This document shows positions 11,537 to 56,904 of a stretch of DNA of 64,000 nucleotides, piece after piece (the stretch's first letter is position 1; every line of letters begins with the position of its first letter). Location of the stretch: the sequence record ON645936.1; one strand, given 5' to 3'. The DNA is from Escherichia phage N2. Both the position numbers and the translations under genes were made by a program. Under the pieces are notes generated by a model. The model made no database searches and was not told the DNA's origin. It saw only the letters and a program-made list of their open reading frames with translations.

Positions 11537-12139
11537 TTATAGATTAAATCCTTCAAAGTCAAGAGTATAGATAGTGTATGTTGAATACTTTTTATACTCG
11601 TATCTATCCGCAATTCTAAATACACTTCCAGCTGGTATCATTACTTCTTGTTCATCTGAAACTAATTCCATATTACGATAGCGATGACTATCCGGAAACT
11701 TAAAACTTGGACTGTATTCTTTACAGCGTAGAGCTTTTATAGCATACTCCTGGAAATTAAATACCATAGGAGCTTTGAATTCAAAAATAACTTGTGTATT
11801 GTATTCTAATCCAGAAGCAAAATGTAGAGCTATATTTTTATCATATGAAGCTGATACTACTTTATCAAATGTAATAATATCAATTCCTTGATTTAATACC
11901 TGCTTAGTCTCAACTGGAACACCTCTCCAAAGAGGTTTATCGTTTGGAACCAAACGAGATTTGATTATTTCATTTAACCAAGAATGATCGTCTGGCTTAT
12001 TAGTAATACAATGAATTAAAAGTTCAATTTCAGATAAATTAAATCCTTCAGAAAGTAATTCTTCACGAATAGAAGCGCGCACCGATGCATCCATTGATTT
12101 GATTTTAAAATCTTTTAATTGCATTGCTGAATATTTCAT
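11537..12139 (-). CDS. modA: ADP-ribosyltransferase ModA
   Basis: 200 aa; size and position; tandem with paralog. Confidence 0.7.
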   Translation of the reverse strand: MKYSAMQLKDFKIKSMDASVRASIREELLSEGFNLSEIELLIHCITNKPDDHSWLNEIIKSRLVPNDKPLWRGVPVETKQVLNQGIDIITFDKVVSASYDKNIALHFASGLEYNTQVIFEFKAPMVFNFQEYAIKALRCKEYSPSFKFPDSHRYRNMELVSDEQEVMIPAGSVFRIADRYEYKKYSTYTIYTLDFEGFNL

Positions 12140-12759
12140 TCAACTACCTCAATATCATACACTTTAAATGTTCCAAATGAATCGTGTAATTTTTCTTTTG
12201 AAATAGAAGTTATTTTATACTTTCCAATTGGAATCATCCATTCTTGTTCACGCACAATCATCATTAAGTTATCAGTACGTTCTGAATCTAATCCATCAGT
12301 ATCTTCATATGTATACTTAAACTCAGTATTAGGAGAAGAAAGTATAATATCGCTGATATGGTCAGAATAATTAAAAGCTTTATCAGTTTTTAAGCGAAAT
12401 ATTATTTCAGTGAAATACTCAACATAAGAAAAACCACATGCTGTGTGCAAACTAGTAGTAAATGAATCTACTCTATTCGTTGAAAACACTTCTCCAACTT
12501 GTAAATCTTTAATGAGCTCTTTTGTCGATTTTGATATACCACGATATAGCTGATAAGGTGATTCAGTTAAATGCTTTTTAATGATTTTATTTAACTGCCG
12601 ATGAAGAGCTTCATTCTTTTTGGCTTCCATACATTGCCAAAGAACTGACTGCTCAAAGTCAGTAAATTTTTCACAGACTTTTTTATACATATCATATTGA
12701 AAATCAACACTTTCAGCTTTTATAGATAACTGTTCAACATCTGCAAGATTAATAATCAT
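12136..12759 (-). CDS. modB: ADP-ribosyltransferase ModB
   Basis: 207 aa from ATG at 12759 with GGAGG SD; upstream promoter. Confidence 0.7.
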   Translation of the reverse strand: MIINLADVEQLSIKAESVDFQYDMYKKVCEKFTDFEQSVLWQCMEAKKNEALHRQLNKIIKKHLTESPYQLYRGISKSTKELIKDLQVGEVFSTNRVDSFTTSLHTACGFSYVEYFTEIIFRLKTDKAFNYSDHISDIILSSPNTEFKYTYEDTDGLDSERTDNLMMIVREQEWMIPIGKYKITSISKEKLHDSFGTFKVYDIEVVE

Positions 12760-12785
12760 GATAGCCTCCATATACTTCAGAAGCT

Positions 12786-50949: not shown

Positions 50950-51477
50950 TTATGCGAGTACCGTCTTTAACCGTTCTTCAAACTTCCGAAGAGTATTTTG
51001 GCGTTCAGCTCTTTGCTTTTTGTAAGTTTCAATACGCTCTGAAATGAGAGTGTATCGTTCATTTACTGATTCTTTCATAAAATCAGGAATTTCACGAGAA
51101 GCTTTAATCTCATCAAATTTATCAATAACAGCTTGCTCTTCAGCAATTAAATTATCATACATTAAAATATCTTTCTTGATGAACTCAATATCTTCTTGAG
51201 TTACACGAGACATTTTAGATGCTTTATCCTTTTTGTAATGTTCGTTAGTATCACGAGACCAGTGTAATGTACGATTTTTATTCGTATTTTTGTAAATTTC
51301 TACAATACCAATCTCATCGATAATAACGATCCAATTCCAACGGGATTTGTAAATTTGTCCTCCATCAACCGTGATTTCACCTCCGATTGAGATGTCGTTA
51401 AAGAACTTGCTTTGTGCTTCAGATTTAAATTTACCATCGTTGTAATTTACCAAGTTGAAAATATCTTTAGCGTTCAT
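50950..51477 (-). CDS. hypothetical protein
   Basis: 175 aa; GGAGGAACAG SD; promoter 51506..51535. Confidence 0.5.
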   Translation of the reverse strand: MNAKDIFNLVNYNDGKFKSEAQSKFFNDISIGGEITVDGGQIYKSRWNWIVIIDEIGIVEIYKNTNKNRTLHWSRDTNEHYKKDKASKMSRVTQEDIEFIKKDILMYDNLIAEEQAVIDKFDEIKASREIPDFMKESVNERYTLISERIETYKKQRAERQNTLRKFEERLKTVLA

Positions 51478-51505
51478 TTTCTGTTCCTCCGTAGTTGATA
51501 GTTGT

Positions 51506-51535
51506 ATAGTACCACAGAGGAACAGTCTTGTAAAC
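51506..51535 (-). promoter_or_regulatory. sigma70-type early promoter with conserved leader
   Basis: minus strand GTTTACA-N17-TGgTACTAT. Confidence 0.5.
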
Positions 51536-51537
51536 CA

Positions 51538-51852
51538 CTAAAAGAAACTTCTTTCACAATTTTTTCCACTGAACCATGCGCTCACTGCTTTCTTAGTCTC
51601 AGGAGCAGTGTTATCCATAAACCATTCAAAGGCAGCCTTTTTATGATTCTGGAGGGCTTCTCGGGCTTTAATCTGCTCACGGTCTATTAACACTAACATA
51701 TGAGCCTTTCTTGTCACCATGGGCTTCTTATGATTTTTTGAATACTCCCAGTCATTTGTCCATCGCATTGTCGTTGCGAATTGAAATACAGCTTCTTTAA
51801 TCTTAGTTTCGTAAATTTCACGAGCCTTTGAGTATAACATCACTACCTCCAT
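51538..51852 (-). CDS. hypothetical protein
   Basis: 104-aa ORF. Confidence 0.45.
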   Translation of the reverse strand: MEVVMLYSKAREIYETKIKEAVFQFATTMRWTNDWEYSKNHKKPMVTRKAHMLVLIDREQIKAREALQNHKKAAFEWFMDNTAPETKKAVSAWFSGKNCERSFF

Positions 51853-51921
51853 TCACCAGTTTAATTCTAGTCATCTTTTTGATGGCAGTCCATATAATCT
51901 ATTTCTGAACTGCCTTTTGTC

Positions 51922-52641
51922 TTAGGATTCTTCTAAATGTCTTTTCTGAAAAGTTGATACCATACTACGATACGGTTCATTTGGATATCCGTGTTTTATA
52001 GCTTCCTTTGTAAATTTTCTCCATCCATATTTAGTTTCTTTCCAAAGCTCGAATAATTCATCTTCATACTGCCATATAGTTAAATGAGAACGCTTTGCAG
52101 CTTTAATTCCATTAATATGCTTTTCTTTTACTGCAGGATTGCTTAGTTTCTTTTTAATAATATTACTAACTTTTCTAACAAAAACTGGGTCCTTATATCG
52201 TTGCGAAGTTTTTATTGAAGTGTTTAATTTAGCTTCCGGCGTGGATGTAACCTCTTTCATCTTTTTCTTCATATGCTGTATATGATTAGGATTTTTCCAT
52301 AAATTTATAGAATGCTTTTTGCATTTTATCCTAGTTTCATCTGCAACCTTTCCTCCTTCACCCCCGTATGACAGGTTAACACAGTTTTTTCCATATTTCA
52401 ATTTACCTGCCATGATATATAATATTTCAGCTTGTACCATTTTATCATAATTATCAAAAACTTCTAAAACCGTTTTTGATAATATGTGGTCATTTGACAC
52501 TTTTACACGTTCTATATAATTTCCACTACCAACATACGAATCATTGATGTTATTAGTTATATGTCGACCATAATAGTATTTCTTAATACCTGTCTTTAAA
52601 TTTAATATTTCAGTTTTATAGATAGTAAAATATTTTTTCAT
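51922..52641 (-). CDS. GIY-YIG-like homing endonuclease
   Basis: 239 aa; FTIYKTEI...YYYGRH...YVGSG; basic C-terminus. Confidence 0.5.
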   Translation of the reverse strand: MKKYFTIYKTEILNLKTGIKKYYYGRHITNNINDSYVGSGNYIERVKVSNDHILSKTVLEVFDNYDKMVQAEILYIMAGKLKYGKNCVNLSYGGEGGKVADETRIKCKKHSINLWKNPNHIQHMKKKMKEVTSTPEAKLNTSIKTSQRYKDPVFVRKVSNIIKKKLSNPAVKEKHINGIKAAKRSHLTIWQYEDELFELWKETKYGWRKFTKEAIKHGYPNEPYRSMVSTFQKRHLEES

Positions 52642-53606
52642 TTTAATAATACCGTTTCAGCAATTTCTTCCCAATGATTTTTGTCGGTCATAATAAAGTC
52701 AGCAAGATAAAGAGCAGTACGCAGTGAAACATTGCGTAAACGATTAACATTGACTTTCATCCATGATAATGCTTTATAAGTTTCTTCATCAGAAAGACCG
52801 CGCTTTTGCATCATGTCGGTTGAAAGAATAACATCTTCAACCCTGACCATAATTTCTTCATTAGTGTGAACACCCAAATCCAAATAAACTGAGCGGGACA
52901 CTAATGCCTGTAAATGTGGAGCAAGTTTAGTACCACGGTCTAATTCGCGGTCAATGTCAACGTTTGTGATAAAAACAATCGTTCCTTTAAATTCAAACTC
53001 ACGCTCAATGCCTTTTTCTTCTAAGTAAGAAGATGCAGTGCTCCAGCAGACTTTACGGGTTTCTCCGGTGTCCAGAGCGGCTTTTAGAAGATTAAGAATG
53101 TCCATATCAGAGAAAACATCCACATCATCAATCAAAAGGACAGAATTCTCTTCACGATTATTCCAAAGCTGTTCATAAAGACCAATACCAGAGATTTTAC
53201 CATTAATGCTTTTATATTCAATGTATCCAATATCATTTGCTTTATTTAAAGCTTTATCTAAAGAATACGTTTTACCAATACCTGCTGCGCCAGAGATAAT
53301 TAATGAACGAATATTTCCATTAATAATACCGTTCGTCATCATTCCCATAACATTAAATCTTTTATTAATGCGGGTTTTCATATCTTCATATGATTCTTTA
53401 ACTTCTTCAACTTTTACACCATCATATGAAATATCTGATTTGTAAACCCAAACACCGCGACGTTTACCGTCAATTTCAACAAAAACTTTACCATCTCCTT
53501 GTGCATCTACCGGAGCATTATCTGGGAACCATTCGCCTAAGAGCTCAAAAGTTCCAGAGATTTCTTTACCAAAGTAGATACCCTTATTGATAGTTACAGT
53601 TTTCAT
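52638..53606 (-). CDS. P-loop AAA-type ATPase
   Basis: Walker A GAAGIGKT, Walker B LLIDDVD; start at ATG 53606 with GGAGAA SD. Confidence 0.6.
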   Translation of the reverse strand: MKTVTINKGIYFGKEISGTFELLGEWFPDNAPVDAQGDGKVFVEIDGKRRGVWVYKSDISYDGVKVEEVKESYEDMKTRINKRFNVMGMMTNGIINGNIRSLIISGAAGIGKTYSLDKALNKANDIGYIEYKSINGKISGIGLYEQLWNNREENSVLLIDDVDVFSDMDILNLLKAALDTGETRKVCWSTASSYLEEKGIEREFEFKGTIVFITNVDIDRELDRGTKLAPHLQALVSRSVYLDLGVHTNEEIMVRVEDVILSTDMMQKRGLSDEETYKALSWMKVNVNRLRNVSLRTALYLADFIMTDKNHWEEIAETVLLK

Positions 53607-53643
53607 TTTATTCTCCAAATCTGTATCAGTAGTTGATAGTTGT

Positions 53644-53673
53644 ATAGTACCATAAAGCTTTATGCTTGTAAAC
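53644..53673 (-). promoter_or_regulatory. sigma70-type early promoter with conserved leader
   Basis: minus strand TTTACA-N17-TGgTACTAT. Confidence 0.5.
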
Positions 53674-53700
53674 TGTTTTGTGAAAAAATTTTTGAAATAA

Positions 53701-53727
53701 AAAGGGGACCTTTAGGGCCCCTTTGTG
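53701..53727 (-). terminator. intrinsic terminator
   Basis: GGGGCCC-UAAA-GGUCCCC then UUUUUAUUU on minus RNA. Confidence 0.6.
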
Positions 53728-53732
53728 TTGAT

Positions 53733-54218
53733 TTATTCCATTTCTACTATATGCATGTTCTTTTTGCTATCAAAATATATGTTTTTAACTATTAACTCAG
53801 AATTAATTGGCAGTAAAAACTCTCTTTCATAATCTACCATACAAAGATTATCATAAAGCTTGTTAAGCTTATCATCGTCAGTTTGGCCAGATTCTTCAAT
53901 TGCGATTAAATTTTCTAAAATGTCAATCATGGCAGTCGAATAGTCGAAAACGTTTGCATTTTTTAACACTACTAAAACATTAGTCATATAGCGTTCTGCC
54001 GCAAACGTTTCAGCTATATGAGACTCACTGCTAAAGGAAGTTATTCTTTTAAATTTGATTCTCCTATTAACTTCAAACTTATAAGATAGCACTTCCTCTA
54101 TTGTAAGTCCTCTAAAAAGTATGTCTTTAATCTCAAGTTTGTCTTTAATGTAATCATTAACACGCTTATGATTAAAATCATTAATTTTGTTGCCAAGGCA
54201 TTGCATTAAAATATGCAT
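53733..54218 (-). CDS. hypothetical protein
   Basis: 161-aa ORF bracketed by promoter and terminator. Confidence 0.5.
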   Translation of the reverse strand: MHILMQCLGNKINDFNHKRVNDYIKDKLEIKDILFRGLTIEEVLSYKFEVNRRIKFKRITSFSSESHIAETFAAERYMTNVLVVLKNANVFDYSTAMIDILENLIAIEESGQTDDDKLNKLYDNLCMVDYEREFLLPINSELIVKNIYFDSKKNMHIVEME

Positions 54219-54264
54219 TGTATTCTCCTCAATTTTTAAAGAGCAATTAATTAACTACACATAT

Positions 54265-54294
54265 ATTATAATATGCTTTGTGATAGAAGTAAAC
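54265..54294 (-). promoter_or_regulatory. sigma70-type early promoter
   Basis: minus strand GTTTACT-N17-TATAAT. Confidence 0.5.
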
Positions 54295-54317
54295 AACTTT
54301 GTGACGTCATTTTAAAC

Positions 54318-54342
54318 AAAAAAAGGGAGCCCGAAGGCTCCC
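54318..54342 (-). terminator. intrinsic terminator after nucleotidyltransferase gene
   Basis: GGGAGCC-UUCG-GGCUCCC then UUUUUUUGUUU on minus RNA. Confidence 0.65.
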
Positions 54343-54344
54343 TA

Positions 54345-55358
54345 TCATTTATAATAACTTCGGTAGTTTTCAAGATAAACCCTCTCAAGGAAGTCATCCC
54401 AAAAACCCATGTCTACTTTTTGCTGCATACCGTTCTTAGAAGCTTCAATGGATGCTGCTTCTACTTGATCGACCACATCTTCCAAAAACTCTTGAACAGT
54501 TTTAAATGGGTGTTTACCCAGCTTCACGTCGAGAATAAATGGAGCGTCTTGAAGTGGATAAACCAAGTCACCAGTTTTGTAAATTTCCAATAGTTGGAGT
54601 CCACCACGACAAGCATGACTTAGAGCTTTCCAGTCAATGCCCTCATTCGCTTCAGCCTTACGAGCACGTTCGCCATATTCAGCATCAAGTTTATTCAAAG
54701 ACTGCTTAAGCTCAATAAGAGAAAGTGTTGTCTGATATTTACGACCCAACACGGTATAGAACATTTGCGGGCCTGTTTTCTCATGGTTATGGAATACCCA
54801 TTCACAGAACTCGTTTTCAGGGAGTCTGTGTTTGATATCTTCTACCTTAGTACGACGAAGTCTATCAGGGATTCCTTCTTGATAGTCGACCCACTGGTCA
54901 GGGATTTGATTAACTACTTTCAATACATCACGTAATGCGGCCAAACGAGAACCCTTGACACCGTATTTAGAAGCTTGCTTGCGGACATATCCTAAATAGG
55001 ATTTCATGTTAGTTGTATAAAACCGTGAACGATTGTCTTGGATAAATTTCCATACATCAGGCAAATCAGATTTAACCACTAGTTCAGGCGGAGTGTGAAG
55101 CATATCCAATGCTACAGTTTCACCATCTGCTGCTAATTTAAAGAAATACTTAAGACTGTACAGTTCATGGTCAATATCATCTTTGGTGTTTTTAGATGAT
55201 GTGTTGTTAGTGTTTTTACTCATATGCTCTTTAACATTTCCGATAAGAATATCGCGAGCAGGAGGAACAAAGATTTCTTTAAAATCTACATCAGATTCTG
55301 GAGTAGAAGTTCCATAAAGATGACTACCAAAATAGCTTTTCATTACTGTTTTCATCAT
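54345..55358 (-). CDS. pol-beta-superfamily nucleotidyltransferase-like protein
   Basis: 337 aa; N-terminal GSHLYGTSTPESDVDF (hG[GS]...DhD) motif. Confidence 0.55.
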   Translation of the reverse strand: MMKTVMKSYFGSHLYGTSTPESDVDFKEIFVPPARDILIGNVKEHMSKNTNNTSSKNTKDDIDHELYSLKYFFKLAADGETVALDMLHTPPELVVKSDLPDVWKFIQDNRSRFYTTNMKSYLGYVRKQASKYGVKGSRLAALRDVLKVVNQIPDQWVDYQEGIPDRLRRTKVEDIKHRLPENEFCEWVFHNHEKTGPQMFYTVLGRKYQTTLSLIELKQSLNKLDAEYGERARKAEANEGIDWKALSHACRGGLQLLEIYKTGDLVYPLQDAPFILDVKLGKHPFKTVQEFLEDVVDQVEAASIEASKNGMQQKVDMGFWDDFLERVYLENYRSYYK

Positions 55359-55816
55359 TCAGCCTTATATTCAATAACAGGACATACTTTAGCTTTACGC
55401 GCTTTTAAAAATTCGACGATAATAGATTTCTTGGGTTGAATAGGAGGTAAACCTTTATACGCCCTATCAATATTTTCTACATGTAAAGCATAATCCTTTT
55501 TCCATTTATAATCTTTATATTTTTCATGCAATTGTGCAGGAATAACAAATGAACCGATAATAAGTAAAACAAGCAAAATGGCAAGTATAAATGCTGCTGG
55601 AATAAGAGTCCATAAACTACCAAAAATAAGCCATTTCTGTATGATTTCTGCACAGATGATAGTTAGACCTGCGAGTATAGTACATCCGAAAAAAGAAACG
55701 AAAAATGTAGGAATAACAATAGACCAAAAATACGCGCATAGTGTCTTAGGTCGTTTCCATTCATCATTAAACATTTTGAATAATTTATAGTGCCAAGAGC
55801 TTTCATTAATAATCAT
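55355..55816 (-). CDS. integral membrane protein
   Basis: 153 aa with about three hydrophobic helices. Confidence 0.5.
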   Translation of the reverse strand: MIINESSWHYKLFKMFNDEWKRPKTLCAYFWSIVIPTFFVSFFGCTILAGLTIICAEIIQKWLIFGSLWTLIPAAFILAILLVLLIIGSFVIPAQLHEKYKDYKWKKDYALHVENIDRAYKGLPPIQPKKSIIVEFLKARKAKVCPVIEYKAE

Positions 55817-55818
55817 AA

Positions 55819-56340
55819 TTATCCTTTCATTGAAGGTGTAACAGTTGTTAAATACTTAATCATAGCTTCAGCTTCTGATTTTGATAATGAAATTTCTCCA
55901 TTGTTTTGACGAATAGAAATAAAATCCGGATGACGGTCACCACCAGCTTTCAAAACACACATATAAGTATCAGTTTCATCTTCAATATTTGAAATGATTG
56001 AAGCAGTTCCACATGAATGTGGTTTTTGATAAATCAATGCAGCTTTTCTTCCACCGTTTGACTGTTCATAAACTTTTAACACATCAAACAAATCACTTCT
56101 TTTATCAATAGCTAAGATGTTGTTTTCATCTTCAATGTTAAATCCTTCGGATACTTCATAAAGTGTCACCCATAAATCGCCTATATCGATAGTAGCATTT
56201 CCTTTTCCACAACTTTCAAGAGCATGACAAATTTTCTTGATTTCGTCATAACTCATTTTAATAATATCATCTCCTTGAATAAGGAAGATGTCATTTTTAA
56301 ATTCAACATGAATTAAACCACTTTCACTTGAAATAAACAT
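55819..56340 (-). CDS. hypothetical protein, paralog of 56347..56904
   Basis: C-terminal SLSKSEAEAMIKYLTTVTPSM. Confidence 0.45.
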   Translation of the reverse strand: MFISSESGLIHVEFKNDIFLIQGDDIIKMSYDEIKKICHALESCGKGNATIDIGDLWVTLYEVSEGFNIEDENNILAIDKRSDLFDVLKVYEQSNGGRKAALIYQKPHSCGTASIISNIEDETDTYMCVLKAGGDRHPDFISIRQNNGEISLSKSEAEAMIKYLTTVTPSMKG

Positions 56341-56346
56341 ATTTCC

Positions 56347-56904
56347 TCACTTTGAAATCATAGTTGGAATGACAGAATCAAGATAAGTCTTTAGCGCAAT
56401 AGCTTCGTCTTTGGTAAATGTGACAATATGTGATCGAAAATCATCAATTTGACGAATAGTTAAGACATCTCCCTCTTCATAACATTTTGATACATTTAAA
56501 AGAGTTTCATCATTCTGATTGCAATCGTTAGTAATAATAGCATTGCAATTTTTGAGCCATTTTAAACTATGTTTTCTTTCATTAGAATAATAAAAATATT
56601 TAATCTTATCTATAAAACTATCCCAATGAATAACTGATAAACACATTGACTCACTTTTAATATTAAATCCTGGGCATGAAGAATAAAAATGAATTTTGTG
56701 CTCATCATTGATGCTTACTATTTTATCAGTATAAGGATATTCAATTTGGATTAAATGAATGATTTCACTAGGCGTAAAATATAGCATATCGTCTTCTTGC
56801 GTCAAACGATACATATTATTTACTTTTTCTATAGCCAATTCACCAAAAAGCGGACTAACTTCTAATACTAATCGTTTCATATTGATTCTCTTCGACTCAC
56901 TCAC
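56347..56904 (-). CDS. hypothetical protein, paralog of 55819..56340
   Basis: C-terminal TFTKDEAIALKTYLDSVIPTM; GTG start. Confidence 0.45.
   Translation of the reverse strand: MSESKRINMKRLVLEVSPLFGELAIEKVNNMYRLTQEDDMLYFTPSEIIHLIQIEYPYTDKIVSINDEHKIHFYSSCPGFNIKSESMCLSVIHWDSFIDKIKYFYYSNERKHSLKWLKNCNAIITNDCNQNDETLLNVSKCYEEGDVLTIRQIDDFRSHIVTFTKDEAIALKTYLDSVIPTMISK

Follow-up and report, generated by a model that had tools for sequence, protein, structure and literature searches.

The locus considered here raises the question of whether a group of neighbouring minus-strand genes of Escherichia phage N2 (accession no. ON645936.1) acts as one system or consists of genes brought together independently. 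The group occupies positions 51922-55358 of the 64,000-nt stretch of DNA that was analysed (hereafter the window). Inspection of this interval revealed four genes, encoding (i) a homing endonuclease of 239 aa, (ii) the ortholog of the T4 ATPase NrdC.10, (iii) a 161-aa protein resembling ADP-ribosyltransferases and (iv) the ortholog of T4 NrdC.11, a predicted nucleotidyltransferase. It is probable (we place the probability at roughly 0.6) that they do not constitute one system, but are four independently acquired accessory genes, with proposed functions in homing, as an ATPase, in ADP-ribosylation and in RNA repair, respectively.

Megablast searches and comparison with T-even maps identified the window as a Tequatrovirus (T4-like) genome and placed the interval within the variable region between nrdC and mobD. 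The segment 51800-55900 matches 798 phage records, the closest of which is Escherichia phage W143 (Tequatrovirus; 97.5% identity over 100% of the query). In the annotated maps of W143, SYGD1 and T4, the interval corresponds to the nrdC-mobD region, transcribed from the minus strand; the order of genes at the T4 locus is nrdC.9, nrdC.10, nrdC.11. An earlier note on this DNA had described three adjacent genes, for a GIY-YIG-like protein, a P-loop ATPase and a pol-beta-type nucleotidyltransferase. All three open reading frames (ORFs) are real and lie on the minus strand (Table 1), and the motifs quoted for them (GAAGIGKT, LLIDDVD and GSHLYGTSTPESDVDF) are all present. They are not adjacent, since the 161-aa ORF, which had been missed, separates the ATPase gene from the nucleotidyltransferase gene; nor had nrdC.10 and nrdC.11 been recognised as long-annotated genes of T4. 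The four genes are ordinary, unlinked and already annotated T-even accessory genes. Near-identical annotated copies of them are found among T4, T2, T6, RB32 and hundreds of sequenced Tequatroviruses, and the nucleotidyltransferase and ATPase assignments have been known since 2006. Because such copies exist so widely, the locus carries little weight as a genome finding. None of the four proteins matched an NCBIfam model, and the PADLOC search with the same proteins returned matches only to homing endonuclease models.

The view that the genes are independent, already put forward in the earlier note, is supported by the co-occurrence of nrdC.10 and nrdC.11 in viral genomes. nrdC.11 was found nearby in 7 of 80 nrdC.10 loci. 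Among 40 close (Tevenvirinae-level) nrdC.11 loci, nrdC.10 was located near nrdC.11 in 33 and was absent within 6 kb in 7. The two genes did not occur within 6 kb of each other at any of 32 distant nrdC.11 loci, whose products are 36-46% identical to NrdC.11, or at any of 73 distant nrdC.10 loci (L011-L083 in our collection, e.g. L063:7142-8599, L034:1550-2617 and L044:510-968). A single 344-kb contig, IMGVR_UViG_3300032254_000001 (L033, L130), carries an nrdC.10-like and an nrdC.11-like gene ~150 kb apart. A two-gene system was thus considered and rejected on the basis of co-occurrence: the genes are adjacent only within the Tevenvirinae and, because a terminator and a promoter also lie between them, we do not regard them as a functional pair. 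In Tevenvirinae relatives (L084-L122), the spacer separating nrdC.11 from nrdC.10 can be as short as ~110 nt or as long as ~2.3 kb; together with the 7 of 40 relatives in which nrdC.10 is absent within 6 kb, this variation identifies the spacer as a hot spot for insertions and deletions.

The NrdC.11 ortholog occupies the same map position as the T4 gene and its product (337 aa, or 336 aa from the second ATG) is 96% identical to the phage T2 protein. It scores above the gathering threshold of the Pfam family PF10127 (RlaP; 43.9 bits versus 23, E = 3.1e-11), and the same family was matched by all 30 aligned homologs (best E = 3.5e-20), a diverse set collected from viral contigs and covering 37-96% identity. 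The protein also matches phrog_388, annotated as a nucleotidyltransferase (E = 9e-136). Its N-terminal region contains the Pol-beta signature hG[GS]-x9-13-Dh[DE]h, in the form F10-G11-S12-x10-D23-V-D25-F26, while the third carboxylate is D85, within the sequence ETVALDML. G11, S12, D23, D25 and D85 are invariant in 30-33 NrdC.11 sequences, down to 37% identity. The pol-beta-type identity proposed in the earlier note is therefore upheld; it is in fact an old assignment, as the protein was placed in COG3541 in 2006 (PMC1524935). NrdC.11 thus shares with the RlaP family (PF10127, formerly COG3541) both the Pfam domain and the G-S / DxD / D pattern, whereas it is longer than the characterised members from Pseudomonas fluorescens and P. 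aeruginosa and differs from them in its long, helical C-terminal half.

Published data on this family point to RNA as the substrate. According to a preprint of December 2025 (10.64898/2025.12.29.696909), RlaP enzymes of Pseudomonas add one or two nucleoside monophosphates (NMPs) to the 3′-OH of RNA, preferring damaged RNA; the additions are untemplated and the substrate preference is only partial. RNA is described in that preprint as the sole E. coli macromolecule labelled by the assayed enzymes. The crystal structure of PfRlaP comprises a nucleotidyltransferase alpha/beta fold and a C-terminal helical domain, with a cleft between them (10.64898/2025.12.29.696909). Its authors suggest that RlaP acts against nucleotide-excising "smart" ribotoxins, of which RloC is an example (10.64898/2025.12.29.696909). 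RloC excises the wobble nucleotide, and the resulting lesion was proposed to defy repair by T4 Pnkp and Rnl1 (PMC2610378).

The earlier note had named NrdC.11 as a candidate modifier of RNA ends or of host signalling nucleotides. The first of these suggestions agrees with the above biochemistry and also with the genomic neighbourhoods of distant homologs; the second found no support. In 20 of the 32 distant viral loci, nrdC.11 is accompanied, on the same strand and within 6 kb, by a gene encoding RtcB (PF01139, E = 2e-127) or an Rnl1-type ligase (PF09511), and an HD+P-loop kinase is often present too. In the control set, RtcB or an Rnl1-type ligase was found near none of the 80 nrdC.10 loci. 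Two conserved forms of same-strand array were distinguished (loci L131, L140-L153 and L132-L138, L154): (i) P-loop kinase - HD+kinase - Rnl1-type ligase - RlaP and (ii) 139-aa unknown protein - RlaP - ATP-dependent DNA-ligase-like protein - RtcB - 383-aa unknown protein - RNase H. The 139-aa, 197-aa and 383-aa partners encoded in the arrays gave no Pfam match. Linkage to RNA ligases is a feature that these distant viral relatives share with bacterial RlaP genes. The difference between the two sets of neighbourhoods (20 of 32 versus 0 of 80) favours a role in RNA (tRNA) repair over one involving signalling nucleotides.

In the mechanism that we propose, NrdC.11 would add one or two nucleotides to the 3′-OH of damaged RNA. 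The likely substrate would be the tRNA 5′ half that is left after a RloC-type host anticodon nuclease has excised a nucleotide. Pnkp and Rnl1, which W143, the closest full relative, encodes ~80 kb from nrdC.11, could then heal and seal the full-length tRNA. The T-even nrdC.11 is not located beside a ligase gene, and the compatible enzyme would be the 5′-phosphate ligase Rnl1 rather than RtcB. In its strongest form, the proposal is that NrdC.11 provides the missing "fill" step (heal, fill, seal), restoring the nucleotides excised by RloC-type anticodon nucleases and thereby allowing Pnkp and Rnl1 to rebuild a functional tRNA, and, separately, that the 161-aa Mod-like enzyme (encoded by T2, not by T4) is a fourth T-even ADP-ribosyltransferase with a host target of its own; we offer this combined proposal tentatively, as possible rather than probable. 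If true, the fill step would answer a question that has been open since 2008, namely whether a phage can reverse the RloC lesion. The recent proposal of a place for RlaP enzymes in RNA repair gains strength from the RNA-ligase neighbourhoods of the distant homologs, and NrdC.11 of T4 or T2 would be a convenient model in which to ask if phages are able to reverse the action of nucleotide-excising anticodon nucleases.

Several observations weigh against these assignments. Only the first 130 residues of NrdC.11 align with the RlaP model, covering positions 23-143 of the 249 in the profile. The AlphaFold2 model of the protein is of poor quality (pLDDT 57.5 overall and below 50 for residues 1-99); the alignment used for modelling comprised 23 homologs with 76-96% identity, i.e. 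only close homologs drawn from the best 120 matches listed. A Foldseek comparison of this poor model with the PDB produced no match at E ≤ 0.001. As structure prediction and fold search both failed, the nucleotidyltransferase fold is backed by the sequence profile only. PDB sequence searches with the single NrdC.11 sequence, a shallow profile and a diverse profile gave nothing significant, PfRlaP being apparently absent or too distant. In the PF10127 similarity network, T4 NrdC.11 falls into cluster 5, labelled "unknown function" (10.64898/2025.12.29.696909), whereas the assayed enzymes belong to cluster 1a, and the preprint has not been peer reviewed. The 20 ligase-linked loci include several near-duplicates, so that the number of independent arrangements is closer to 5-8. 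Genes for RtcB, Rnl1 or the HD-kinase were detected neither in the 64-kb window nor at the 40 close Tevenvirinae nrdC.11 loci; because no ligase lies near, a link between the T-even NrdC.11 and repair would operate in trans. The region nrdC.11-mobD.3 can be deleted from T4 (PMC9825161), so any role of nrdC.11 would be conditional. The enzymatic activities and targets of all four proteins are themselves predictions.

Among the alternatives, the one that survives best, although we consider it unlikely, is that NrdC.11 acts on other RNA 3′ ends, as in the restoration of toxin-trimmed tRNA 3′-CCA or the tailing of transcripts, and is not a specific antidote to RloC. The addition of untemplated NMPs with a partial substrate preference, as reported for RlaP, would suit such a role, as would the lack of linkage between the Tevenvirinae nrdC.11 and the Pnkp and Rnl1 genes; the same-strand association of distant homologs with RtcB or Rnl1 and with end-healing kinases points instead to the repair of breaks that ends in ligation. 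It is distinctly improbable that NrdC.11 is an anti-defence enzyme directed at host signalling nucleotides, or one that attaches nucleotides to a host protein or small molecule. It is true that cyclases, CD-NTases and nucleotidyltransferases acting on proteins or antibiotics belong to the Pol-beta superfamily (10.64898/2025.12.29.696909), and nrdC.11 is a non-essential gene of an accessory region. However, RlaP is the only Pfam family matched by NrdC.11, the protein is among those with neither a PADLOC nor an NCBIfam match, the labelling reported in the preprint was confined to RNA, and the genes around distant homologs specify RNA ligases, polynucleotide-kinase-like proteins and RNase H rather than components of defence signalling. 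Least probable of all is a two-component arrangement in which the ATPase NrdC.10 loads, remodels or regulates NrdC.11 while the other two genes are passengers, as the identical order and orientation of the pair in most Tevenvirinae-level loci and in T4 are outweighed by the co-occurrence figures given above, by the strong terminator and separate early promoter between the genes, by the filling of the spacer in N2 with an unrelated gene, and by the different neighbours of the distant homologs (RNA ligases for nrdC.11, uvsW and uvsX for nrdC.10).

Returning to the reading that we prefer, of four separate accessory genes, NrdC.10 is best considered as a protein in its own right. Translation from the ATG at 53606, the start annotated in T4 as well, gives 322 aa, whereas the TTG upstream at 53618 would give 326 aa. 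The protein (phrog_1250) is ~99% identical to T4-type sequences and shares their Walker A and B motifs. The P-loop ATPase identity given in the earlier note is confirmed by the invariance, in 29 homologs, of Walker A (G106-AAGIGKT) and Walker B (LLIDDVD), as well as of the sensor-1 residue N215 and of R238, R291 and R296. The AAA+ alpha-beta-alpha core and the helical lid are both present, preceded by an N-terminal beta domain of ~65 aa. The protein has been described as an AAA ATPase since 2006 (PMC1524935), and the PDB sequence search with NrdC.10 returned no match. nrdC.10 is widespread in T4-like phages and is found on at least 575 viral contigs. In 39 of the 61 distant loci with enough flanking sequence, it is placed directly upstream of a gene for a UvsW-like SF2 helicase, and homologs of UvsX (RecA-like), UvsY and gp32 are encoded near distant nrdC.10 loci; this synteny is not seen in T4 itself. 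Our best guess is that NrdC.10 is a stand-alone AAA+ ATPase that may remodel a DNA replication or recombination complex, the synteny weakly suggesting a role alongside replication or recombination proteins. NrdC.10 merits study by itself, and may be connected with UvsW-type recombination functions rather than with NrdC.11.

The 161-aa protein matches phrog_832 ("RNA polymerase ADP-ribosylase", E = 1.4e-23). A profile search among the ORFs of the window identified two paralogs, ModB (12136-12771, minus strand) and ModA (11537-12139, minus strand), with which it shares 30% (E = 2e-14) and 28% (E = 6e-11) aa identity, respectively, according to BLASTP; the gene is thus the third Mod paralog of the N2 window. 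R36 (within FRG), S61-F-S63 and E131-R-E133 are invariant in four family members and align with the YRG, SFT and EQE motifs of ModB. A set of 1.84 billion proteins yielded only 30 representatives of this small family. The gene was found in 43 phage records, including T2, HY01, UFV-AREG1 and Citrobacter phage Moon, in which it is mostly annotated as ADP-ribosylase, ModA or modB_2; it is absent from T4. The PDB sequence search with this protein gave no result. A precomputed Pfam label, PF26816, is attached to its homologs; it was not reproduced in the local Pfam search. That the sequence represents a spurious ORF or only part of a gene was ruled out by its promoter, Shine-Dalgarno sequence, terminator and conserved motifs, and by the intact copies in the 43 records.

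T4 ModA and ModB are arginine-specific ADP-ribosyltransferases, and ModB also joins NAD-capped RNA to host proteins (PMC10468400). The 161-aa protein resembles them in the aligned R / S-x-S / E-x-E residues and in the early promoter of its gene. It differs in being ~40 residues shorter at the N-terminus (ModA and ModB have 200-211 aa) and in being encoded at another locus, as a mobile cassette present in T2 and ~40 other phages, but not in T4. We suggest that the cassette, a self-contained unit of early promoter, ORF and hairpin, encodes a ModA/ModB-like arginine ADP-ribosyltransferase, with a host protein as its probable target in early infection. The occurrence of a third Mod-like ADP-ribosyltransferase in some T-even phages, T2 among them, is of interest given the RNAylation activity of ModB.

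The boundaries of the cassette were determined by alignment with T4, in which the nrdC.11/nrdC.10 spacer is 114 nt long. The window shares with this spacer the left hairpin, whose stem-loop after nrdC.11 is identical to that of T4, and the right promoter, upstream of nrdC.10, which is near-identical to the T4 intergenic sequence. The latter corresponds to the right half of the T4 intergenic promoter/stem-loop unit, conserved in the window, and it fits the published consensus TTTACW-N17-TAYWAT (PMC4122927) of the promoter-early stem-loop (PeSL) cassettes of T4-type phages (Arbiol et al. 2010, PMC2839356; Comeau et al. 2014, PMC4122927). Between the shared hairpin and promoter, a block composed of a new promoter, the ORF and a new hairpin is inserted. 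The new promoter, absent from the T4 spacer, is followed by the Shine-Dalgarno sequence GAGGAG, and the hairpin that follows the 161-aa ORF is unlike the T4 hairpin in sequence. This arrangement agrees with the PeSL model of modular shuffling in that the gene is bracketed by units of stem-loop and promoter of the consensus type, and in that the insertion separates the hairpin of the T4 unit at the same site from its promoter. It departs from the model in that the two bracketing hairpins are dissimilar. Recombination between such units may have moved the gene: in Moon-like phages, the 161-aa gene is ~93% identical and the flanking nrdC.11 67%, a contrast that argues for lateral transfer of the 161-aa gene.

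The 239-aa protein matches phrog_314, a family of homing endonucleases (E = 1.4e-30), and the PADLOC HEase models (E = 5.5e-8). It gave weak but significant tblastn matches to T4 segB (E = 8e-6) and to the I-TevII region (E = 2e-6), while the Pfam GIY-YIG model did not match it at E ≤ 0.1. In an alignment with T4 SegB (33% identity), the YIG-H, DxYxGSG, E72, N89 and GGEGG positions are common to both proteins, which, with the phrog_314 match, bears out the GIY-YIG-like identity given in the earlier note. When I-TevII is added to the alignment, E72, N89 and G93-G94 are retained, and the arginine position is not conserved. The gene is free-standing, between nrdC.10 and nrdC.9, and is found at ≥95% identity in 66 phage records (RB32, T6, RB68, RB9). 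It is absent from T4 at the same site, as would be expected of a mobile free-standing endonuclease gene. T4 SegB and other Seg-type enzymes are likewise encoded by free-standing, intergenic genes that are present or absent among otherwise collinear phages; the N2 protein differs from them in that the motif pair reads TIY (residues 6-8) and YYG (23-25), with a spacer of 14 residues instead of 10-11. On these sequence similarities, we predict that the product is a Seg-type GIY-YIG homing endonuclease with cleavage activity. The gene would be a selfish mobile element, whose product likely cuts the corresponding locus in phages that lack it; it is located downstream of nrdC.10, to which its translation is probably coupled.

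Table 1. Features identified in and around the interval 51922-55358 of the window
Feature	Position	Strand	Evidence or remark
nrdC.9 ortholog	51538-51852	-	Pfam DUF7203, E = 3e-15
nrdC.9 promoter-like site	51892-51864	-	directly after endonuclease gene
Predicted homing endonuclease gene, 239 aa	51922-52641	-	phrog_314, PADLOC HEase models, SegB alignment
nrdC.10 ortholog, AAA+ ATPase, 322 aa	52638-53606	-	Walker motifs, T4 synteny
T4-early-type promoter-like site upstream of nrdC.10, GTTTACA-17-TACTAT	53644-53672	-	consensus scan, T4 comparison
Terminator-like hairpin and T-run directly after 161-aa ORF, 3′ end of cassette	53705-53721	-	-12.1 kcal/mol
ModA/ModB-like mini ADP-ribosyltransferase gene (predicted), 161 aa	53733-54218	-	phrog_832, BLASTP, motifs
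T4-early-type promoter-like site of the ADP-ribosyltransferase cassette, GTTTACT-17-TATAAT	54265-54293	-	consensus scan
Intrinsic-terminator-like hairpin (GGGAGCCTTCGGGCTCCC + T7) directly after nrdC.11 stop	54324-54343	-	-16.2 kcal/mol, z = -3.5
nrdC.11 ortholog, predicted RlaP-family Pol-beta nucleotidyltransferase, 337 aa	54345-55358	-	Pfam PF10127, phrog_388
Predicted membrane-protein gene, 153 aa, phrog_944	55355-55816	-	4-nt overlap of its stop with nrdC.11 start

The transcription signals listed in Table 1 agree only in part with the earlier statement that a separate promoter and terminator belong to each gene. Terminators do follow nrdC.11 and the 161-aa ORF, and promoters precede the 161-aa ORF and nrdC.10. 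However, no terminator was found at the 3′ end of nrdC.10, no plausible promoter could be assigned to the endonuclease gene itself, and the ends of these two genes overlap, the nrdC.10 stop and the endonuclease ATG sharing 4 nt (ATGA). An Rfam search of positions 51000-56500 at E ≤ 1 revealed nothing near any gathering score. The HNH endonuclease gene mobD, located upstream of nrdC.11 in T4, is absent from this locus of the window. The G+C content is 31-37% throughout the window.

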